64,000 nucleotides of DNA from Raja brachyura. Its lineage: Eukaryota. The position numbers were made by a program, and so were the translations under genes. Positions 8,006-64,000 of this stretch are shown piece by piece. The stretch lies in NCBI GenBank assembly GCA_963514005.1, contig OY740807.1, forward strand, positions 29,636,001 to 29,700,000, in the 5' to 3' direction. How positions within the stretch are numbered: the stretch's first letter is position 1; each line of letters begins with the position of its first letter. Under the pieces are notes generated by a model that was not told the origin of the DNA, ran no database searches, and was given only the letters and a program-made list of their open reading frames with translations.

Positions 8006-9073
8006 CCGTGGGTTATATGGTACTAGTCCAAACAACGAGCTCGTGGACAGTGATGACAACGAGGTTGCTCTTCAATGAAAGAAGAAAAAAAAAGAATATT
8101 AAACAAATTCATGTGAAATGTTCTGGATCACACTTTGTATAATGTTTACTGCACAGTCATTAGCAGCAATCACGTTTCAAGCTATCCTTTGAGAGCATAC
8201 TTGTTGCACTGATTTCCTATCAGATCTGTTTAAGAACCTGAAATTTATGCAGCACCTTTCACCAATGAGATGTTGGGACATCCCGGAGTATTGCGTATTT
8301 TTAAGATATATCTACTGTTGTAAGTTAAGAAATACAGCTATGAATTTTCATACAGATATTCCACAAACAGCAATGTGATAATGACCTGATAATCTGTATT
8401 TGTGTTGTTGACTCTGGGAGCTATTAACCAAAGCCTTGGGTAGAATTCCCTTACTTGTAGAATATTGTCCTGGGGGGTTTTTTCATCCACGTAAAAAAAA
8501 AATGGAATCTCCAACAGTGCAGAATTCGCTAAATGCTACATCAGGTTCGGGTAAGATGTTATGCTCAAATATTTGGAAAGGTGCTTGTACCTACAGCTTT
8601 CTGATTCAGATGAAAGATAAAGAAAATGCATTGCCCACAAGTTCCCTTAATGCAAATTATACCAAAAATATAGATAACTATGAAAGAGAACACATTAACT
8701 TATTGCCTTTTCAAGTGCAAACATAATAGGTCAAGATTATTCCAGCCAATACTTCATGTAGAGGCTGGTTTGAATCCACAGTAAGATGCCCTCTGTGCAA
8801 AATGAGCTTGGGTGCTTGTAATTAGTTCTTGATGGTCATGAACCTGTCAAAAACATGCTTTTAATTTAGCACTAACTTTAATTAAATCGGTGGCCACACT
8901 TTAAAAGCTACATGGATGGTTTGAATTAGAAGAATTTCATTGATATAAAGAGAAAAACTTCTTCCAAGGCTCTGGCATAACAAGTTGAGGATAATTTTAA
9001 CTGATCCTGTGATAACGCAGTGGGGTCAAAGTGAATATACATCTATGGGTGCTATTCTCCATGGACATAATTG

Positions 9074-9136
9074 ATTTCATTTCGGAGTCACGTGAGTGAC
9101 TTCGTGAAGAGCCCGCCGGCGCGCATGCTCGACATA
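9074..9136 (+). repeat. DIRS left inverted terminal repeat
   Basis: The sequence atttcatttcggagtcacgtgagtgacttcgtgaagagcccgccggcgcgcatgctcgacata is complementary to the ICR (14059-14095) and the right ITR (14285-14320). Confidence 0.92.
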
Positions 9137-9252
9137 TCGTCGTAACGCGTTGCTGCGACGGCTGGCGGTGGAGCGCGCTCCTCGCCAGCCCTTCATAAGG
9201 GGCCACGGAGGTGAGTATTCCACCTTTAGTTGGTGGTCCTTGTTGTCTGATT

Positions 9253-11010
9253 ATGTCTTGCAGCAAGGACATGGATGGGAGTTCGAAGGGCCGGAGGACG
9301 TCAGGACGAGTTCGCCGGTCAACAGTTCCGGGGCCTTTACCATCGGCAGTACCTGCAGCGCAGGCCGGGACTCAGGCAGAGATGTGGGTAAGCCCTGTGT
9401 TCACAGGTCCAGATCCGCCAGCACACCACAGCTCGGAGGAGTTCGACGAGGAGGAGTGTGGTGTGCCGCCAGAGCAGGGGGACCCTGCCATGGCAGTCAG
9501 GTTGTCAGCGGGCTCGCTGGCGACCTCGAGCAGGGCGCGTGCCGTTGCACGGCCTGTTCCACTCAGCCCTCCGAGAAGGGGGAGGGGAGGAGCCCAAAAG
9601 CCTAACCCTGTTAGGGCTAAGGCATTGCCTGTCGCGGAGGAGCGGTCAGGTTCCAGGGCGAGACCCGGGGCGGCTGTGAGGTCCAGCCGGCACACCCCGA
9701 CTCTCGACGCCGGGACGGGTCGGTTGAGTCGGGTCTCGTCGCGGTCGCCGAGCCCCCCATGGATGGGTGGGCGGCACCATGCGTCGGCAACGTCCACGAT
9801 GTGGGCAGCCGGCAAGACTGCGCGGGCCCCAGGCAGCCATGCTTCGGCTGGTGCCGACACCTCGCCGCATGTGCCCTTAGTGGCAGCGGCTTCAGCTCTC
9901 GCTAAACGGAGGCGATTGAACACGCCCGCGCAGGAATCGCGCAGTTTCGCCTCGGCGGCTGTTAGCGACAACTACCGGCACCGGCAGGGCCTCGACGAGG
10001 TGCGGGCCGATGACAGGAGCCCGGTTTTCTTTTCAGAGCCGGAGGACTCCGACCACCTGAGTGTTCAGGGTGAAGGGCGTATTGACCGTATGGAGCGGCT
10101 GCTGGAGCTCCTGCTTCAACGTCAACAACAGCAGGGCAGCAACAGGCACAGGGCGTCTTCACCAACATCTACTATCAGCCTGGAGCAGCACGAGGAGGAG
10201 GTTCTGGTGGATCCCGTACCACCTCCGGTGGAGGTGCCAGCGGAGGAACTTTTGGATGTGGCGACCAAATTCGCGGCCCCACATACGGCTGGTCTTCCTC
10301 TCAATTCAAAGCTGGCAGCCACAGTGGACTTTCTTAATAATCAGGTGCTGCAGGAAGAAGTCCTCATCCAGGCTATGAGCCGTCACAAGGCTCCATCAAA
10401 CTGCAACTCCCTCAACGTGCCTGTGGTCAATACGCCAATATGGGGCAACATCAGTGCGGCTATCCGTCAACAAGAGCTACAATTGCAGCGGATCCTGAAA
10501 CTCCTCACGGCCGGTATTACCGCCTTTGCGCGGTCGGTGGACGAGGACGAGCTGAATTTGGACCAGGAAGATGCTCTGGCCTTATTGTGCGCGACCCAGC
10601 ACGAAATCAACGGGTTTCGCAAAAACAGCATCCGCCCAGCACTCAACCCGAAGTTTGCAGGATTGTGCAAACCACCGCCGCCGCCGCCGCCCCGTCAGCT
10701 CTTTGGTGAGGACCTCTCGAAGAGAGTCAAAGAGCTTGACGAACAAGCCAAAACGGTGGGGATCATGCGCTCTAAGAGTGCCCCCACACCGTCCGGCTCA
10801 AAAGCTCCATACATTTGCTCACGAGGGTCGGCCAGTGCCTCGACGAGGACTCACCCTCTAGCTCCACAACGACAACAACACCAGAACCAGCACCAAGGGT
10901 CTTTTTTAGGACAGGGTCGGCAGAGATCTTTTTGGAAATCGAAGACGCCGCGCCCTCAAGCCAACCCAGCACCTCCACGGCCACCCACACGTGTCAAGGA
11001 CCGCCGGTAA
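9253..11010 (+). CDS. DIRS ORF1 (gag-like)
   Basis: Uninterrupted ORF; the track starts it at GTG 9211, and the first in-frame ATG is at 9253. It has a low-complexity S/R/P-rich N-terminus and a C-terminal region (VPVVNTPIW...RKNSIRPALNPKF...LFGEDL) in the expected gag position. Confidence 0.8.
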   Translation: MSCSKDMDGSSKGRRTSGRVRRSTVPGPLPSAVPAAQAGTQAEMWVSPVFTGPDPPAHHSSEEFDEEECGVPPEQGDPAMAVRLSAGSLATSSRARAVARPVPLSPPRRGRGGAQKPNPVRAKALPVAEERSGSRARPGAAVRSSRHTPTLDAGTGRLSRVSSRSPSPPWMGGRHHASATSTMWAAGKTARAPGSHASAGADTSPHVPLVAAASALAKRRRLNTPAQESRSFASAAVSDNYRHRQGLDEVRADDRSPVFFSEPEDSDHLSVQGEGRIDRMERLLELLLQRQQQQGSNRHRASSPTSTISLEQHEEEVLVDPVPPPVEVPAEELLDVATKFAAPHTAGLPLNSKLAATVDFLNNQVLQEEVLIQAMSRHKAPSNCNSLNVPVVNTPIWGNISAAIRQQELQLQRILKLLTAGITAFARSVDEDELNLDQEDALALLCATQHEINGFRKNSIRPALNPKFAGLCKPPPPPPPRQLFGEDLSKRVKELDEQAKTVGIMRSKSAPTPSGSKAPYICSRGSASASTRTHPLAPQRQQHQNQHQGSFLGQGRQRSFWKSKTPRPQANPAPPRPPTRVKDRR

Positions 11011-12939
11011 CCACGGAGGTGAGGGGGTCTGGTTCTCTCTTTTCTCTCTGTTTAACTTCCCATGTTGGTGGTCGTTTACGGTTGTTTTTGGATGCATGGG
11101 GTAATTTTACTGGTGATGAGTATGTGTTGCGGAATATTCAGGGGCATAAAATTGAGTTTATTAATGGCGACATTCCTCCATCCCAGCACATGCCTGGTCG
11201 TACGTTCAAATTGTCTGCTGCAGAACAGGCAGCAGGTTACAAGGAAATTTTAGGTTTGGAACAGAAGGGTGTGATTGAGAAAACAGTGCATGAGCCAATT
11301 GAATTCGTTTCGAACATATTTACTAGACCTAAGAAGGATGGAGGCTGTCGTGTCATTATTGATCTAACCCGTTTGAATACGTTTGTAACATATACTCATT
11401 TTAAAATGGATACGTTTGAAACAGCCAAATCATTGATTTCTCATGGCTGCTTTATGGCATGCATTGATTTGAGGGATGCATATTATTCAGTATCCATCCA
11501 GAAAGATGATAGAACGTTTTTGAAATTTATCTGGATGGGGCAACTTTGGCAGTATAAGGCTTTGCCTAATGGGCTTACTACAGCCCCTAGATTGTTCACT
11601 AAATTGGTGAAGCCAATCATGGCTTATTTGAGACAACGACATCATATAGTTATGGCCTATTTAGATGATCTTTATTGTGGGCCACACCCTGCAATTGGCT
11701 GAACAGGGTGTTGCAGCTGCTGTCAATATATTTCAACAATTAGGATTCATTGTCCATCCAGAGAAATCAAAGTTCTGCCCTGCCCAGGTAATTAATTACC
11801 TAGGGTTCACGGTGAACTCAATGAGCATGAGGATAACTATACCAATTAACAAAATTGAGGAAGTCACTAAGATGTGCAGAGATTTAATTGGCACCAATAT
11901 ACCATCGATTCGGCATACAGCCACAGTAATTGGCAAGTTAGTGGCTTTGTTTCCGGCAGCACGATATGGACCTTTGCATTATCAGAATTTGCAAAGAGCT
12001 AAAATTACTGCGTTAAAATGGAACGCTGGTCATTACGATCGATCTATGCAGCTGCCGTCCGAAGCGATAACTGAGTTGCAATGGTGGGTGTGTCACATTA
12101 GCAACTCATTTAAGCCTGTCAGGGAGGCTAATCCGGTGGTATATTTACAGACTGATGCAAGCTCCAATGGCTGGGGAGCTACTGATAATTGCTCTAGTTG
12201 TGGGGGTAGATGGGACACCCTTGAGGCATCGATGTTGTTGACTCAAGGGATTAACTATTTGGAGTTGCTGGCAGCATTCCACGGACTTCGTGCATATTGT
12301 TCCAAGCTTGTTGGAGCACACGTCCGTCTCCAAATAGACAACACCACAGCTGTGGCATATTTAAACCATATGGGTGGTACCAGGTCAGTTTCGTGTGACA
12401 AATTGGCTAACTCAATTTGGCTCTGGTGTATTCAAAGAGACATTTGGATTTCAGCTACCTATTTGCCAGGTGAGCTTAATACTGTGGCGGACACCAGGTC
12501 ACGCAAATTTAATGACAACATTGAATGGATGTTGCATCCTGAGATTTTTGCTAAAGTCACAGCCAAATTTGGTAAACCGGACATTGACCTTTTTGCGTCA
12601 CGGTTGAACCATCAGGTACCAGCCTACGTTTCATGGGAACCAGATCCTGGGGCAATAGCGCTAGATGCATTCTCGCTGGACTGGGGGAATTGGGTTTTCT
12701 ATGCCTTCCCTCCGTTTTGCCTCATCAGTCGGGTATTGCGAAAGATTCAGGCAGATGCTGCCAAGGGCATCCTTATTATACCCGACTGGCCCACACAGCC
12801 TTGGTATCCGGTGGTCTTTGACATGCTCAACGAACCTTGGGTCCTTTTGAAGGGTTGCCCACAATTGGTTACTCACCCTGTGTCAGGGGAGCCACATCCC
12901 TGCCATGGCTATTTAAATTTGTTGGCTTGCAGGTTCTGA
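10815..12939 (+). pseudogene. DIRS ORF2 (RT, RNase H, methyltransferase-like domain) with one frameshift at about 11669
   Basis: RT motifs: FTRPKKDGGCRVIIDL, IDLRDAYY, LPNGLTTAPRLF and YLDD. RNase H motifs: QTDAS, INYLELLA, DNTTAV and NTVAD. MT-like motifs: IDLFAS and YAFPPF. The frame shifts right after YLDD. The true start codon is uncertain. Confidence 0.92.
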
Positions 12940-12977
12940 ACGGGCCGTTAGTCCAATACGGCCTCTCGGCTCGGACC

Positions 12978-13916
12978 ATGGATACCATCGGGGCGTCGTG
13001 TCGAGAGTCCACAAGGCGAAGATACCGCTCGCATATTAAGAAGTGGGAAGCCTACTGCAGCCGCTCTCGCATCACGTACGATGACGTGACAATAACCGAC
13101 GTCCTGGAATTCCTCGCGGGGTTGCACCATGATGAACACTTAAGTTACAGTGCCATCAACAGCGCCAGAAGTGCGCTATCATTCTACCTCAAGATTGGGG
13201 TAGGATCCAACAGGCTAGTGTCCAGACTCATGCGGGGTATATTCAATATGAATCCGCCTACACCACGCTATAATATCACCTGGGATGTCAGGGACGTATT
13301 AACCCTGCTCATGACGTGGTCTCCCATGGAAGGGCTCCAACTGGACCAACTCACCATGAAGCTGGTGATGTTACTAGCGCTGACTTCAGCTCAGAGGGTA
13401 CAGACACTACACAAACTGCGTGTCGACAGAATGACATCTACCCCTACAGAAGTAGTCTTTTTCGTTGACGAGCTACTAAAGCAGCATAGACCTGGGTGCA
13501 CAGGGCTGCAGCTGAAGTTCCCGGCATACCCCGCAGATGCTAGGCTATGTTTAGCCTCACATATCCGCCACTATGTCAAGGTGACGGCACGCATCAGAGG
13601 AATGGAGAGATACCTGCTTGTCACTCATAAGAGACCTCATCATCGAGTGACAGTCCAGACGATATCCAGGTGGCTTCGAGTCGTCTTGGGTAAGTCAGGT
13701 ATCGACACTAATGTGTTCAAGTCTCATTCCACCAGGGCTGCATCGACGTCAGCGGCGAGGGTCATGGAGGTGCCCATGGACCAAATTCTCGCCACAGCAG
13801 GATGGGCGAATGAAGCTGTGTTCCAGCGTTTTTATAACAAGCCTGTTGCTGCTCCTCTACAGTTCGCAGAAGCCGTGCTGAATGCAGGTCAAGAACGTGG
13901 AGATGTCCCCGCATGA
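12978..13916 (+). CDS. DIRS ORF3 tyrosine recombinase
   Basis: The frame is open from 12837, and the first ATG at 12978 is in accATGg context. Catalytic pattern: AQR...K...HSTRAAS...GW...FY. Confidence 0.93.
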   Translation: MDTIGASCRESTRRRYRSHIKKWEAYCSRSRITYDDVTITDVLEFLAGLHHDEHLSYSAINSARSALSFYLKIGVGSNRLVSRLMRGIFNMNPPTPRYNITWDVRDVLTLLMTWSPMEGLQLDQLTMKLVMLLALTSAQRVQTLHKLRVDRMTSTPTEVVFFVDELLKQHRPGCTGLQLKFPAYPADARLCLASHIRHYVKVTARIRGMERYLLVTHKRPHHRVTVQTISRWLRVVLGKSGIDTNVFKSHSTRAASTSAARVMEVPMDQILATAGWANEAVFQRFYNKPVAAPLQFAEAVLNAGQERGDVPA

Positions 13917-14058
13917 GGGGTTTTTGATTTGTTATTAATAAATATGCTTTTGTTTTGCAGTATGAGCTATTGAGCCAGTTTGTTCCTCCCATCCATCCCT
14001 GGTAGTGGTGTGTCAGCATGGACGTGGTCCAGGGCGTGTAATCACAGAAGCTTTGAAG

Positions 14059-14171
14059 TCTTCACGAAGTCACTCACGTGACTCCGAAATGAAATAGTAA
14101 GATTGAACGAGAACTTACCAGTTCAAGGGTTGATCTTTATTTCATGAGGAGTCGAAGTGAGGGATTTCGTG
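14059..14171 (+). repeat. DIRS internal complementary region (ICR)
   Basis: The left half is complementary to the element 5' end and the right half to the 3' end. The two halves overlap on AAT (14093-14095), which is the complement of the terminal ATT. Confidence 0.93.
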
Positions 14172-14284
14172 CCCTCCTCGCCCAACCCTCAATCACCTTC
14201 ATCTGGTAATCTTAGTCAATTCAATCATACTATGCGAAGTCATTTCTATTGTTGGTTCTGTGATTCCACGCCGCTACTTTGAAG

Positions 14285-14393
14285 TATGTCGAGCATGCGC
14301 GCCGGCGGGCTCTTCACGAAATCCCTCACTTCGACTCCTCATGAAATAAAGATCAACCCTCGAACTGGTAAGTTCTCGTTCAATCTTACTATT
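14285..14393 (+). repeat. DIRS right ITR plus right extension
   Basis: tatgtcgagcatgcgcgccggcgggctcttcacgaa is the reverse complement of 9101-9136. The extension pairs with the ICR and ends in ATT. Confidence 0.92.
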
Positions 14394-16669
14394 CCTGCCA
14401 ACTAGTCAGCATGTTCTCAAACCTTATTATTCTGAGATGGATATTCATTTCTTCTGCTGGCCGTGAAGTCAATTGAAACACGTTCAGGTTAAATACAATG
14501 CATAAACCTAACTTCCTATTGCATAAGACACACAATGTGCAAGGCCTGAGATCAAACATTTCTTAAGAATTGATGTACCAGCATTTAAATTTGCACACAC
14601 ATATATGGGGTGTAAGTTTACTATTGTCACATGTACCAAGAAAAGCTTTGTTTTGCATGCTATAAAAACAGGTCAGATATACCATATGCCAATACGATCA
14701 AGTCAAACTCAAGTACAGTAGATAGAGCAAAGGGGAAGGTACAGAGTGTAATATATAGGTTTCAGAATTGTAGCACATCAGTTCCATAGACAAAGTCCAA
14801 TGTCCACAATGGGGTCGGGGTGAATCAGACACCATGTTTATAGGTCACAATCAATTGAATTATGGTTTAACATGTTACGATGCACTTTTATAGGATTTTG
14901 ATTTATTCCAGTAAAATTAGAAGAGCAATGGGATATATCAACATTGATAGCATTGTATCACCATAGGTAAGAATAGTGCATGGGACATTATTTCTAGGTT
15001 CATGTGATGTAAATGTAATGCAGTTGTGTTATACTTTGATATATTAATACAATAGAAAGATATTACACAAAACTGTACTTTGAACTCTGCAGTTTTGGGA
15101 ACAACTAAACAGATTGATGTTTCTATTCTCCTATGGAGCAAACTTGGACTGAGCTATTAGAGACATTTAAAATCAGAAATGTGTTGGACAGAACCGAAAT
15201 GGAGAAAATGTCTCAGTTGTGAAAAATCAAAACCCAGGGAATAAAATAGAAATAAGAAATAATAATCAAAATATTGACATAAAGTATTGCTTAATCAGAG
15301 AATGAATGGGTTGTCAAATAAATTGTGGAGTCCACAGCCACTAGAAGAGGTTGAAGCAAGTATGTGGAGTGTTTTCAAATGGTGTTTATGAGGTGCAAGG
15401 TGGGTGGCTAAATAGGTAGGTGTGTCTGCAATGACAACCCTCAATAATGAATATTCTGGCCAATGCTGCCTTTGAAAGCCACTAAGTGCTCTATTAAAAT
15501 CATTGGCAGTTGTACATTGACTCAGTGGCTGTTACCGGAGATACTGTAATTTTCCTTGTCAAAACCATTGTGGCTGACATTAATTTCCAGTAATTATAAT
15601 GTTTGTTCAGTCTTTGTAGATTTGAAAGTTTGTATAAAAAGCTTAGAATGATATTTCATTTTAAGGAGAAATGTCGTCATGCTTGGTGAAACAACTAACA
15701 TGGAGGCATGTATTAATTTGCTCTATTGAAAAGGAGCAAATGGAATATTCACAAACGCTTGACCAAAAATGGAGTAGATCCAAGGTGAAGAGCTATATGG
15801 TTGGGAATGTTAGTCTTTCAATAACATGAAATGCTTCTGAGTTAATTGCTTATCCACAACACATGAGTCTATTAGTCCTTGTGGAGTTGGGAGATGTCTA
15901 TTAGATTGGGCACTGGTTTGGTTAATGTATACTGTGTTGGGCCTCGGGTCAGGAGCTGCTAGGCATTACATATTTATGTGCTTTAGAGTGTGCTGCTCGC
16001 TCCTCAACTCCTAAGGTCATGACCGGGAGGATGGTCACAGGCCTGATTCAGGAATAGTGTGTGTGCTCCATGAAGCACACCTTCAGTCATTGGCAACATC
16101 TATGTCAAGAGCAGGGTGAGTGTTGAGACGGCATTTTATGTGTGCTGGGGAGGAGGGATTGTATTAATTGCTGAGGGTGTGTGGTTAGGAGACTAGTAAT
16201 ACGTTGTGGAGGAAGAGGGATAGCTGATTGTTCGGGATAATGATGAGGATAACAGCCATCAGTGCAGTGAGGACTCAGAGGTGTAAGGATTTAGCCTAGC
16301 TAAGTTTGACCTTATCTCTTTCCTGCTCTTCTCTCCCCGCCCTTGCTCTGACAGTTGACTTAATGGGATTAAAACCATGTAAGCAGGAACAACTCAGTGA
16401 AGGACGTTCCCTGGGGAACTTTGTCCAATCTTTCTTGTAAAGTTCCAAAAAGAATTATGCCTGGGAACACCATTGTGTCTGTTCCTGGCAAGGAAATCCT
16501 AGCAGTGTTGCCAGGGTAACTTTTTCCATAAGTCAGGAAACTGTTCAATTCACCTATACCCCACTGAGAACATTGCACTTTGTCTAAGGAAGTGATGCAC
16601 TACAGTGCTGAGAACTATATTCTGCACTCTGTATCTTCCCTTTTATTCCATTGTACTTGAGTTTTTTTC

Positions 16670-24322: not shown

Positions 24323-27030
24323 TGTATATGTGGGGGGGGATCTGCATGTTGTACTGAATCATAGGCTTGATACGACAAGTAAAAAGAAGAATAAGAACCA
24401 GTTAACTAAACTACTAAACGCCACCTGTGAAGAATTAGGTTTTCTTGATGTCTGGAGGAATTTTCACCCTCTAGAAAGAGACTATACACATTACTCAATA
24501 CCGCACTCAGTTTAATCCAGAATAGACTATTTCTTAATGCAGAAAGAAGACTGTTATAGGGTAACGGGTTGCAGAATTGGTGTGACAGATGTATCAGACC
24601 GTAATGCCATATACTTACTGTCAAATGGACAGTAGAAGGAAAAACACAGTGTGGCGATTAAATGTTGGAATACTGAATGATAAAACATCTGTTAATGATA
24701 TTAAATTGGAAATCAAAACTTATCTAGAGGAGAATGACAATGGGGAGGTGGACCCATCCATACTATGGGACTCTTTGAAGGCTGTAATACGAAGTAGGTT
24801 AATAGCTAGGGCATTACATATTAAAAAGGCCGTAATGAAAACATTTAATAAGTTGATAACAGACCCGAAGGATTTAGAACAGAAGTACAAAAATAATAAG
24901 AACCAGAGAACTTATAAGCAAATAGAAGATTTGAGGGGACTAATGGATGGAATATTGGGTCAAGAGGTGGAGAAAAAAGCAAGATTTGTAAAACAGGCAC
25001 ATTATGAGCTTGGCCCTAAATCCACTAAAATACTTGCCCGAAGGCTACGCAAACAACAGGCTGACAACACCATACACAAAATTAAGGACCCCTGTACACA
25101 GAATTTGAAGAGTGATCCAAAAGAAATAGAATATATCTTCCAAGAATATTATAAAGAATTATATACACAAACCTCTACAGTAGATGGGGAATCAATGAGG
25201 ACTTTTTTAAGTACAATAGATCTGCCCTGTATTGGAGAGACACAAAATAAAATGATTACAGCAGAAATATCACTGGAGGAGGTAGAGAAGACAATTGGTA
25301 GGATGAAATCAAACAAGGCCCCAGGCAGTGACGGTTTCCCTATAGAATGGTATAAAATATTTCGGAATGAGCTGAACCCACTCCTTCTGAGAACCTTTAA
25401 CTGGATTATCAAAGAAGGCAAGACACCCCCGTCATGGAAAGAAGCAATTATAACATTAATCCCCAAAGAGAACAAAGACAAGGAAAATTGTACCAACTAC
25501 AGACCGATATCAACTCTAAATGTGGACTATAAATTATATTCTTCATTTATCTCCAAACGATTTGAAAAGTTAATCCAAGATTTAATTGATGAAGACCAGA
25601 CTGGTTTTATAATAGGCAGACAAACACAGGACAGCATTAGAAGAACCCTACATATAATACACACGATTCAAAAGGAAAATACGCGTGCTGTCCTGATAAG
25701 TCTAGACGCGGAAAAGGCTTTTGATAGGGTTAAGTGGGAATTCTTATATCAAACACTAGAAAGATTTGGCTTTACCGAAGATTCAATTCAAGTTATTAAA
25801 GCAATTTACCAGCAACCTACTGCAAGAGTAAAGGTGAATGGGTCCTTAACTGAGAGATTTGTGTTAGGAAGAGGAACGAGACAGGGATGTTGTCTTAGCC
25901 TTACCCTGTTTGCTATATATATTGAACCATTGGCTCAAGCGATTCGTCAGGATAGGGAACTGAGGGGAGTAACTATAAGAGACAGAGAACATAAAATTGG
26001 CCTTTTTGCAGATGATGTAATGGTGTATCTCACGGAAGTAAACACCTCATTTGCAAGGATAATGGGGATCATAGAGAAATTTAATTTTTATGCAGGATAT
26101 AAAGTGAATATTCCAAAAACTCAAATCCTATTCAATTGTCCTCCAGAAGAAATCAAACAAAATTATAATATTAAGTGGGATTCAAAATCAATCAAATACC
26201 TAGGCGTACATATAACAAAAAATATATCAATGTTGTATGGGGCCAATTATAATCACATCAACCAAAACATAAGAAAGGATTACAATCTCAGAAGAAGAAT
26301 GGCATCATATGTGTGTAACACTACAGACATCCACTAATTCACAAAATTGGAGAGAATTTAACTGGAAAATTTTGATTTGTTTCTTTATTACACCTAACAT
26401 AAAAAAACAAGCAAATTCTAAGGCAGCAAACATGCTGGAGGCAATGGGGTCAAACAGACGCAAATCATGCACATATCTTCTGGAGTTGCCCAAAAATAGA
26501 ACCATTTTGGGACAGAGTGAATTCAGAATTAACGGAGGTATTAGGATATATAGTCTCCAAGAAGTGTTCCATTTTATACCTGGGTAATATAAATACAGTG
26601 GTGCTGAAGGAAGATCATTACTTGGTTAAAATCCTACCACAGATGGCAGAAAGGCCATTACAAGAAACTGGCTTGCAGCGGACACACCCCGACTTAGACA
26701 ATGGTTAGACATAGTACAGGACATATTTGTCATGAAGAAAATGACATATTCTCTAAGAGTGAAAGAAGACGAGTTTAACAGAAAATGGCAGAAATGGATT
26801 AGGTATAGAAATAAAGACATCAACACTGTATAATTGTACTGACAATAATGTAAGTTATTGGAAAATGTTTTAATATGAAAATAGTTCTGTATCCTGCATC
26901 ATTAATTGTAAACTGAACCCTTCCACCTACACTGTTGTACGTTTCACTATATTGTTGTATTTTTCTTTGTTATATTTGTGTTTTATTTGTGTATACATAA
27001 AAGCAATAAAAATTAAAGTGGAAAAAAAGA
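24323..27030 (+). mobile_element. L1/Tx1-clade LINE, 5'-truncated within the endonuclease
   Basis: APE C-terminal motifs (GGDL, SRIDYF) and RT motifs KAPGSDG, YRPIS, DAEKAFD, GTRQGC, FADD and KYLG (ORF 24589-26337). AATAAA and an A tail follow. A 12-bp TSD aactattagcaa lies at 24311-24322 and 27031-27042. Confidence 0.92.
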
Positions 27031-28074: not shown

Positions 28075-29240
28075 ACTTTAGGTAGCCCCATCATTCCCTC
28101 CCTCTCTCTCTATCCCTCCCCTACCCAAGTTACACTACCTTCTCATTTTCACCTTACAAACAGCTTACAATGGTCTGTTTTCTTTATCATCTTTACTTTT
28201 TTGTATATCTTTCATTCATCGTCCTTTAACTCTCCACATCATCGTCTATACCTCTTGTTTCCCATACCTCTAACCAGTCGGAAGAATGAATGAATGAATG
28301 AAAAAGTTTATTGGCCAAGTATTCACGTACAAGGAATTTGCCTTGGTGCTCTGCCCGCAAGTGACAACATGACATACAGTAACAGTTAGGAATGATACGT
28401 AAATCATTAAACATTAATAATAAAACATTATTGATTAAACATGTGAATTAAGTAAAATACCAGAGCAAAAGGAGGCTACAGAATTTTGGTTATTGAGTAG
28501 AGCTACTACTCGTAGAAAAAAGCTGTCTGGCTGTGGCAGCTTTGACAGTCCGAAGTCGCCTTCCAGAGGGAAGTGATTCAAAGAGTTTGTAGCCAGGGTG
28601 AGAGGGGTCAGAGATGATCTTACCCGCTCGCTTCCTGGCCCTTGCAGTGTACAGTTCGTCAATGGAGGGAAGGTTACAGCCAATAACCTTCTCAGCTGAT
28701 TGGACGATTCGCTGCAGCCTCCGGATGTTGTGTTTGGTGCATGAGCCAAACCAGACCTTGATGGAGAAGGTGAGGACAGACTCTACGAAGGCCGTATATA
28801 ATTGGACCATCATTGCCTGTGGCAGATTGTGCTTCCTCAGCTGCCGCAGGAAGTACATCCTCTGTTGGGCCTTTTTGACTGTGGAGTCGATGGTAGCCCC
28901 CCAATTAAGGTCCTTGGAGATGATGGTTCCCAGGAACTTAAAAGACTCCACAGATGTGACTGTGGTGTTGTTGATGGTGAGTGGGGTGAGGGGAGGGGGA
29001 GTTCTCCTAAAGTCAACAATCAATTCCACTGTCTTGAGAGCATTGAGCTCCAGGTTGTTGCGATGGCACCAGGACGCCAGCTGTGTCACTTCCTGTCCGT
29101 AGGCAGATTCCTCCCCAACCTGGATCAGTCCAATCAGGGTTGTGTTGTCCGCAAGGGTCTCAACCCGAAATGTCACACATACCTTCTCTCCAGAGATGCT
29201 GCCTGTTCTGCTGAGTTATTCTAGCTTTTTGTGTCTGTCC
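28075..29240 (+). mobile_element. Penelope 3' UTR/pseudo-LTR fragment split by a Rex1-like insertion
   Basis: 28075-28286 matches the reverse complement of about 62110-62310. The sequence resumes at 29153 with aagggtctcaacccgaaatgtcac. Confidence 0.75.
28287..29152 (-). mobile_element. Rex1/Babar-type LINE 3' fragment
   Basis: The reverse ORF reads ADNTTLIG...WCHRNNLELN..KTVELIVDFR...FKFLG...KKAQQRMYFLRQL...LPSGRRLR. A (TGAA)n tail lies at 28287-28301. Confidence 0.85.
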
Positions 29241-62350: not shown

Positions 62351-64000
62351 TTAACAGAATTGAGAAAATTCAATGTTTAAGCCCAGAGGATGCAGACTCC
62401 CCAAGCGGAATATCAGGTGCTGTTCCTCCAACTTGCGGTGTTGCTCACTCTGGCCGAGGAGGAGGCCCAGGACCGAGAGGTCAGATACGGAATGGGAGAG
62501 GGAGTTGAAGTGCTGAGCCACCGGGAGGTCGGGTTGGTTATTGCGGACCGAGCGGAGGTGTTCGGCGAAACGATCCCCAAGCCTCCGCTTGGTCTCACCG
62601 ATATAGATCAGCTGGCATCTGGAGCAACGGATGCAGTAGATGAGGTTGGAGGAGGTGCAGGTGAACCTCTGTCAGACTTGGAAGGACTGCTTGGGTCCCT
62701 GAAAGGCGTGGATGGGGGAGGTGAAGGGAAAAGTGCAGCATCTCTTGCGGTTGCAAGGGAAAGTGCTCGGGGAAGGGGTGGAGCGGGATGGAAGGGAAGA
62801 ATTGACAAGGGAGTTGCGGAGGGAGCGGTCTTTGCGGAAGGCAGACGGGGGGGGAGATGGGAAGATGTGGCGAGTGGAGGGGTCACGTTGGAGGTGGCGA
62901 AACTGGCGGAGGACTATCTGTTGTATGTGCCAGCTGGTGGGGTGTAAGGTGAGGACCAGGGGGACTCTGCCCTTGTTGTGAGTGGGGGAATGGGGAGATA
63001 GGGCAGTGTTGCGGGGTATGGAGGAGACCCTGGTGCGAGCCTCATCTATAGTGGGGGAGGGGAATCCCTGTTCTCTGAAGAACGAGGACATTTGTGATGA
63101 CCTGGTGTGGAACACCTCATCCTGGGAGCAGATGCGGCGTAGACGGAGGAATTGGGAATAGGGGATGGAGTCCTTACAGGAAGCAGGGTGGGAGGAAGGG
63201 TAGTCCAGGTAGCTGTGGGAGTCAGTTGGTTTGTAGTGGATGTCGGTCAGGAGTGTATCACCTGCAATAGAGATGGTGAGGTCAAGGAATGGTAGGGAAA
63301 TGTTGGAAATGGTCCAAGTGTATTTGAGTGCCGGATGGAAATTGGTGGTGAAATGGATGAAGTCAGTCAGTTGTGTGTGGGTGCAGGAGGTAACACCAAA
63401 GCAGTCGTCAATGTAACGGAGGTAAAGGTCGGGGGTGGGGCCCTGGTACGTCGAGAACAAAGATTGTTCGATGTGCCCGACAAAGAGGCAAGCGTAGCTG
63501 GGGCCCATGCGTGTGCCCATAGCTACGCCTTGTGTTTGGAGGAAATGGGAGGAGTCAAAAGAGAAGTTATTGAGGGTAAGGACCAACTCCGCCAGGCGGA
63601 GGAGGGTGTCAGTGGATGGGTATGGGTTGCTCCACTGGTCGAGGAAGTACCGGAGGGCTTTGAGACCATCCTGGTGGGGGATGGAGGTGTATAGTGACTG
63701 GACGTCCATGGTGAAGATGAGAGGATGGGGGCCTGGGGAATGGAATGCGTGGAGCCGACGGAGAGTGTCTGAGGTGTCTTGAACATAGGTGGGGAGGGAT
63801 TTAACAAAGGGGGATAGGATGCAGTCAAGGTATGTGGAAATGTGTTCGGTGGGGCACGAACAGGCAGAGACAATGGGTCTGCCGGGGCAGTCGGGTTTGT
63901 GGATTTTGGGGAGAAGGTAAAATCGGGCCGTGCGGGGCAGGGAAACTATGAGGTTGGAGGCTCGGGGGGGTAGGGAGCCGGAGATGATGAAGTCGGTTAT
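62351..64000 (-). pseudogene. Penelope RT/GIY-YIG ORF with a single in-frame TGA at 62672-62674
   Basis: By manual translation the frame is open from 64000 to 62675. It then hits TGA and stays open through the GIY-YIG domain to TAA at 62351-62353. Confidence 0.88.

Follow-up and report, generated by a model that had tools for sequence, protein, structure and literature searches.

Retrotransposons of the DIRS1 type are described as integrating from a double-stranded circle that recombines with its target over a whole 3-bp ATT overlap (PMC3266345; PMC7192593). In AcaDIRS1 and AcaDIRS2 of Aplysia, gag, pol (RT, for reverse transcriptase; RNase H; methyltransferase) and the tyrosine recombinase (YR) follow each other between short inverted terminal repeats (ITRs) with a right extension, the halves of an internal complementary region (ICR) overlap on AAT, the termini are ATT and the elements measure about 5.2-5.8 kb (PMC3266345). 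Table 3 of that survey gives NTT starts and ends that vary at base 2 (CTT/CAT, TTT/TGT, GTT/GAT, TTT/TAT). In Dictyostelium, the DIRS-1 cDNA is single-stranded, antisense and mostly linear, the polymerase chain reaction across the circle junction failed and, according to the same account, the specificity of the DIRS YR has not been investigated experimentally (PMC7192593). The integron integrase IntI1 cuts the bottom strand at G|TT, requires identity only at base 1 and is lax at base 2 (PMC2811028); integrons also use GNT secondary sites (PMC3518468; PMC10127599) and their recombination is resolved by replication (PMC4792948). Likewise, CTX-phi is integrated by XerC at dif and the product is resolved by replication (PMC3442271). 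Here, a DIRS1-like element of Raja brachyura is compared with these systems. It occupies positions 9074..14393 of a 64,000-nt window (assembly GCA_963514005.1, contig OY740807.1, positions 29,636,001 to 29,700,000 of the forward strand). As a whole, its features are best explained by a young DIRS1-like copy that was joined at A|TT and integrated through a single strand exchange, an explanation for which confidence and doubt are about evenly balanced.

The element shares gene order, terminal layout and size with AcaDIRS1/2. Its parts and target are as follows, in positions of the window and with target bases counted rightward from the first base of the ATT:

9074..14393, plus strand: DIRS1-like retrotransposon, 5,320 bp, ATT at each end; the empty allele skips 9074-14390
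9074..9110, plus strand: left terminus, paired 37/37 with the ICR left half; base 9074 is probably target-derived
9092..9136, plus strand: left ITR, 45 nt, 96%, with a perfect core at 9101-9136
14059..14171, plus strand: ICR, halves overlapping on AAT at 14093-14095; co-varies with the 3' terminus
14285..14329, plus strand: right ITR, with a perfect core at 14285-14320
14315..14393, plus strand: 3' terminus, paired 78/79 with the ICR right half; its final two bases are probably target-derived
14394..14403, plus strand: right flank (+4 to +13), the preference-bearing side of the target in a matrix of 47 independent sites

Complementarity was found between 9074-9110 and 14059-14095 (37/37), between the ITR cores 9101-9136 and 14285-14320 (36/36), and between 14093-14171 and 14315-14393 (78/79), where 14125/14361 is the sole mismatch. 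An initial annotation, made from the letters of the window, had given these counts together with the AAT shared by the ICR halves and the ATT at both termini; all were returned exactly on recomputation, and each of the three matches ends within one base of the edges given. The complementarity of termini and ICR is far above chance, and the 3' region folds with z = -17.7 as plus-strand RNA and z = -19.7 as minus-strand DNA, with 0/100 shuffles doing as well in both cases. With ITRs extended on the right, an ICR that pairs both termini and whose halves share a 3-bp junction, NTT termini, and a trinucleotide present once in the empty site without other target duplication, the element is DIRS1-like by all testable features, as these are described in PMC3266345 and PMC9210276. 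No long direct repeat of the split, Ngaro/PAT-like kind was found, the terminal repeats being inverted. That this is a young DIRS1-like copy is almost certain; its anatomy on its own is ordinary. Smaller repeats accompany this layout. A 17-nt inverted repeat (94%; 14033-14049 and 14256-14272) flanks the ICR on both sides, a 9-nt direct repeat has one copy just 5' of the ICR and the other just 5' of the right ITR core, and a 21-nt direct repeat (76%) connects 9175-9195, just inside the left ITR, with 14171-14191, just after the ICR. The latter is possibly a promoter or template-switch element.

The empty site with one ATT that the initial annotation had predicted was seen in 5/8 public runs, in which both flanks are joined across a single ATT. 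In runs X1 and X3, the joint leads from 9073 to 14391 with three letters fitting either side, and in X2, X4 and X8 single contigs span both flanks in the empty state. These five runs represent four samples, three organisms and three studies; flank coverage was too thin in X7 and absent in X9 and X12. No filled junction was present among the matches listed for the public runs. In X2 (organism A), only 3/2,056 flank bases differ from the window, a within-species level, and the contig crosses the site unbroken, which makes polymorphism of the insertion within the host species likely. Organisms B and C, whose flanks differ more, are also empty; the empty state is hence ancestral, and the sharing among distant species that the annotation had named as an argument against recency did not occur. 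The insertion is recent and likely polymorphic, in line with the annotation's suggestion and with the empty state in four other samples. At a site within a long interspersed nuclear element (LINE) that is discussed below, 126,124 uninterrupted copies carry a single ATT, and 1,687 filled ones carry ATT at the 3' terminus of the element.

Most targets are ATT; the rare others show which partner supplied each base. Besides 6,696 canonical 3' ends, 3' variants were counted at base 1 (15), base 2 (318) and base 3 (13), and 5'-type variants at base 1 (201) and base 2 (25), the latter two counts pooling the two lineages, and ICR matches along with 5' ends, over an uncounted denominator. The differences between these counts are pronounced (binomial p 5e-75, 3e-77 and 2e-35). 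In 100 listed of the 318 base-2 variants, about 54 A, 38 G and 8 C were counted by eye; this predominance of A and G is unlike transition mutation. Forty base-1 matches were fetched, with T and C over-sampled: all 24 matches starting with G were 5' ends and none was an ICR, and 9/16 of those starting with T or C were ICR mutations. Where non-A starts had a scored 3' end, the opposite end read A-N-N in 30/30 cases and ATT in 26. Later mutation to G was rejected as a source of the G-starts, since in the matching context at 3' ends G makes up 11 of the 15 variants vs. about 83 of the first 100 of the 201. Base 1 on the left and bases 2-3 on the right thus derive from the target, which indicates a single join at A|TT. 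The join lies after the first base, with base 2 lax and base 3 fixed, and a 3-bp overlap with random segregation is incompatible with the polarity of the variants.

The target extends further to the right. In the 47 sites, C was found at +4 in 45, and a pyrimidine at +5 in 45, at +6 in 41 and at +9 in 40; the preference is weaker out to +13, and the left side shows little except at -2 to -4. The preferred target is consequently ATTCYY, one-sided and reaching to about +13, and the ATT preference that the annotation had expected at other insertion sites held across the family. C at +4 distinguishes the main lineage (99/103) from a sister lineage (14/50) with the same donor core, both sets including copies picked for non-A starts. 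As the donor has T at +4, this preference is not pairing. Within 5'-ACC copies, the figures were 9/18 vs. 5/32 (p 0.02). The location of the +4 specificity in the YR is suggestive only, all parts co-varying by lineage. On the left side, T at -1, the donor base, was present in 24/26 G-start copies vs. 11/49 A-start sites (p 3.5e-9; p 4e-8 against a 40% background). This association was found in both lineages (8/9 and 14/15). C at -2, which also matches the donor, was present in 31/77 (p 0.0002, uncorrected, seven tests).

A plausible account of these data, to which we give slightly less than even confidence, is that a folded, single-stranded (minus-strand) cDNA integrates through one strand exchange. 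Reverse transcription would produce a minus-strand cDNA whose ends are rebuilt on the ICR, and both ends would stay annealed to it, forming a 113-bp duplex whose bottom strand consists of the two termini. The YR would bind the target by protein readout on the right side of the join (TTCYY, reaching about +13), cut the bottom strands at AA|T and, at N|TT, exchange no strand but the one made up of the two cDNA ends. The freed 5' end would test pairing to the left, accepting a match at +1, or a G-T wobble there if -1 matches as well. No second exchange would follow, and host replication or repair would resolve the junction and make the plus strand. A bottom-strand cut at AA|T, with T-A-G as the freed end and a T-G wobble, would explain why G at base 1 goes along with T at -1, and why C at -2 is enriched. 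Flank data and folding geometry, two independent lines, indicate the same strand.

The copies themselves fit this scheme. In 143 copies, the ICR and the 3' terminus mirror each other in 11 shared variant states, and unpaired states are rare (no more than 7 copies each, many at CpG, none lineage-wide); one is therefore copied from the other in each cycle. If only the bottom strand of the folded cDNA, made up of its two ends, is exchanged, the canonical layout would result every time, and second-crossover or ICR-opened copies were indeed found in 0/100 unselected 5' ends (upper 95% bound 3%). A donor-type left flank occurred in 1/100 and is a tandem insertion, not a second product. Overall, the copies fit a single exchange better than the textbook double-stranded circle, and the base-level integration map favours, but does not prove, an integron-like single-strand exchange.

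Two unusual loci deserve mention. At L204 (with L216:3375-8271 and L218), a copy of the sister lineage is attached head to tail, via one ATT, to the 3' end of an element of a third, older DIRS family. It was rejected as a second-crossover product because the tandem insertion stands behind a whole older element; insertion at earlier copies is also described for DIRS-1 (PMC7192593), and L204 is the one tandem case here. At L212:4990-5791, an inverted 3' part is present without a normal 3' terminus, a rearrangement on the basis of which L212 was rejected as an ICR-opened copy and which possibly arose by fold-back in reverse transcription. L212 was excluded from the +4 comparison and the flank test and kept in the sister ICR table and among the 81 scored 3' ends.

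Among known systems, the recombination of attC with attI by IntI1 resembles this scheme in the join after base 1 of NTT, the matched base 1, the lax base 2 and the one-sided core. A folded single-stranded donor would be a further likeness. The integron system differs in being bacterial and in its G|TT and GTTRRRY cores, and attC is read via extrahelical bases vs. a perfect-duplex donor for DIRS. The likeness would hence be only mechanistic, by analogy, and not one of family. In CTX-phi, two distant inverted segments of one strand also fold into a site, one exchange takes place and replication resolves the product, whereas host recombinases and one fixed chromosomal site are used (PMC3442271). 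Dictyostelium DIRS-1 is similar in its ICR-based end restoration, its single-stranded antisense cDNA and an RT able to act in trans; it differs in its approximately 40 intact centromeric copies, compared with thousands of dispersed copies with a measurable target matrix here (PMC7192593). We tentatively propose for DIRS elements an integration like that of integron cassettes and CTX-phi, in which the ICR would serve both as template for the ends and as partner strand of the attachment site. Neither an N|TT crossover map nor an integron-like DIRS model was found in the literature searched, although the Goodwin and Poulter papers and Poulter and Butler 2015, outside that search, may state the crossover; the literature searched, PMC5941688 and PMC4350176 among it, also gave nothing on this DIRS family.

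Several points weigh against a single exchange. The mechanistic evidence consists of finished insertions only, with no intermediate; the 100 unselected 5' ends all come from one contig (C1), and the 5'-type variant counts are pooled as described above. The predicted YR fold is nearest to Cre, a two-exchange enzyme, which scores above the integron integrase 2a3v. Base 3 is strict here and tolerant on one partner in IntI1 (PMC2811028), and strongly biased repair after two exchanges would yield the same single outcome. A-start sites show no enrichment of T at -1 (24/77, p 0.61), and the donor A at -3 is slightly depleted (14/77). Leftward pairing would consequently extend over no more than 1-3 bases, and protein readout could account for it instead.

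The rival that survives best, though we regard it as unlikely, is a double-stranded circle undergoing two exchanges over a 6-8-bp unmatched spacer left of A|TT, comparable to Cre or Tn916, with repair always retaining the spacer of the target, and with the ICR site concealed by accessory sequences. It would account for the A|TT join and the one-sided target matrix alike, and an AAT in the junction lies six bases left of the ATT and would give an 8-bp spacer. In a fold search, the YR model (pLDDT 92.9) came nearest to Cre (Z 19.2, root-mean-square deviation 3.3, 274 aligned) and scored lower against the integron integrase 2a3v (Z 17.0, deviation 7.3, 263 aligned). Judged from the model, the fold seems to be that of a generic tyrosine recombinase and leaves the mechanism undecided; phmmer with the YR against solved structures gave nothing relevant, and a profile search gave weak matches to Cre and XerA. 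Two exchanges over an unmatched spacer should leave donor bases at some left ends; with Tn916, donor coupling sequence stays behind at either end. In the copies examined here, second products were 0/100, so that repair bias would have to be complete, and the targets show no mirrored left arm. The ICR of a duplex circle matches the junction perfectly over 113 bp, and integration at the ICR, leaving the junction inside the copy, is therefore expected, yet the ICR was opened in 0/100 copies.

Improbable, in our view, is a linear folded cDNA on which the YR would act like a topoisomerase, with one nick and one ligation, the other end being attached by RT or target-primed host repair. Repair joining usually leaves scars, whereas the ends are base-precise, with the exact terminal hexamer in 80/81 scored 3' ends, and the empty allele shows neither gain nor loss beyond the shared ATT. 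A single join point and one-sided recognition are compatible with this route, as are the mostly linear DIRS-1 cDNA and its non-amplifiable circle junction (PMC7192593). Still less probable is the textbook circle, with which one ATT kept in the empty allele and ATT at both ends of most copies agree. Its 3-bp heteroduplex would place mismatches at either end, whereas the counts show a marked polarity (318 vs. 25 and 201 vs. 15); it predicts no preference at +4 to +13, where a strong one was observed, and ICR-opened copies are missing among 100 unselected 5' ends. As stated, it is largely refuted by the polarised counts. The initial annotation's view of integration at a trinucleotide from a circle is too coarse: the join follows base 1, base 2 is lax, the target is one-sided over about 13 bases, and the evidence of the copies speaks against a substrate in the form of a fully double-stranded circle. 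No free circle junction was encountered.

The coding part of the element comprises three regions:

9253..11010, plus strand: ORF1 (open reading frame 1), gag-like by position, open, 603 codons stop to stop
10776..12939, plus strand: pol, with RT, an RNase H region and a methyltransferase-like part, split over the frames 10776-11702 and 11665-12939
12978..13916, plus strand: YR, open, with R140, K168, HSTR 250-253, W276 and Y286

RT, methyltransferase and YR are co-oriented in DIRS order downstream of gag. Pfam matches were obtained for pol (RVT_1, E 1.4e-11; Dam, E 0.0016, below the curated cut-off) and for the YR (Phage_int_SAM_4, E 6e-7; Phage_integrase, E 1.5e-5); ORF1 (gag) and RNase H gave no Pfam match and were assigned by position. 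The YL/IDD and HSTR motifs are present, as are the catalytic R, K, HxxR, W and Y. The YR frame is open over 364 codons stop to stop, and R140, K168, R253, W276 and Y286 are invariant across 88 aligned YR sequences. Its dN/dS amounts to 0.09-0.15 against eight divergent copies and 0.38-0.44 against two close copies. The closest named YR proteins are from a skate (51% identity) and from echinoderms, coral and abalone (39-50%), which by itself would make a cartilaginous fish the likely host. A frameshift near 11,668, immediately 3' of the YLDD motif, divides pol into frames of 308 and 424 codons; it is private to this copy (0/43 close sister copies) and either a real change or an assembly error. 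Read as it stands, the copy would not be autonomous, and its remobilization would be possible only with RT in trans. The annotation had called the element structurally complete, which applies to its termini and not to pol, and had described ORF1 and YR as intact and CpG-rich, as they proved to be: the observed/expected CpG ratio is 0.83 in ORF1 and 0.80 in the YR vs. 0.36-0.40 in the flanks. Since a ratio of 0.75-0.80 in all five subfamily bins makes CpG richness a family-wide trait, it does not date this copy.

Copy number and divergence, which the annotation had proposed to measure, indicate a large and young family. In the 2.7-Gb genome, 6,153 exact 43-nt 5' ends of the main lineage, 1,928 exact 5' ends of the sister lineage and 6,696 exact 3' ends with a non-T next base were counted. 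At least 6,153 plus 1,928 copies compare with a survey maximum of 2,091 in zebrafish, obtained by another counting method (PMC3266345). Over the aligned length, identity reaches 98.9-99.7% in the 39 copies that come closest at the 3' end; all 39 align to both element ends, 38 of them as a single piece. A young cluster of 45 copies shows a mean pairwise distance of 0.38%, so that the copies are not all highly diverged, and among 44 young copies this one carries nine singleton substitutions. The annotation's very young age and active family are both upheld, all three frames being open in 23/40 near copies vs. 8/47 scored unselected copies. The unselected set consisted of the first 63 listed 5' ends on contig C1 (60 newly fetched, three fetched before), and both ends lay within 6.2 kb in 53 of the 60; frame and subfamily scoring left 13/99 fetched copies unscored. 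Subfamilies are about 0.5, 2, 5, 10, 13 and 22% distant from this copy and have identical termini.

In the sister lineage (L176-L215), YR similarity to the main lineage is graded, which suggests possible mosaics. Eight other organisms (B-I, runs X3-X19) contain 39-58% of the sampled words. In these runs, the summed depth of the element is very high for B and C and low for D and E, a hint of a lineage-limited burst, although depth is not copy number. Other retroelement frames in the window lie at 24586-26334 (plus strand), 62675-64000 (minus strand) and 28493-29215 (minus strand); they include two RT matches (E 1e-39 and 9e-7) and one ALKBH8_N match, which we take to be typical of a LINE C-terminus.

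A single LINE motif, present 143,524 times in the genome, adjoins 1,687/6,696 3' ends (25%). The hot spot corresponds to the codons for WNSLP at the end of the RT frame of a LINE that is presumably CR1-like; Pfam gave no match on the hot-spot frame and a weak RT match on the neighbouring frame. From the matrix of 47 other sites, 1.7% of insertions (+4 to +6) or 12% (+4 to +13) were predicted at this motif, and 9.5% (-2 to +13) or 4% (-10 to +14) when left bases were included. Sequence preference can thus explain up to about half of the insertions (12% vs. 25%), and dedicated targeting of the LINE was rejected; tethering is not needed, though it may contribute. Co-amplification of LINE and DIRS as one unit was likewise rejected, as the copies at the LINE site are 0.3-13% distant from this copy. 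In the window, eight CR1-like target motifs are unoccupied. Recurrent insertion sites with three copies each occur in other repeats (L056/L066/L084; L035/L050/L120; L047/L083/L119).

The family represents a natural experiment: it offers thousands of integration products, its empty allele is confirmed and the cut is mapped to the base, which allows a test to be designed with a defined substrate, cut strand and target. About 33 Mb of recent DIRS DNA (6,153 x 5.3 kb), or about 1.2% of the assembly if all copies are full length, also constitutes a large supply of presence/absence markers. If true, a single exchange would revise the textbook circle model and link a vertebrate retrotransposon to integron chemistry. 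It would represent eukaryotic single-strand integration by a tyrosine recombinase, directed to a one-sided target of 13 bp that is not the same in the sister lineages, and a scar-free, sequence-biased integrase for 5 kb may then be of interest to tool builders.

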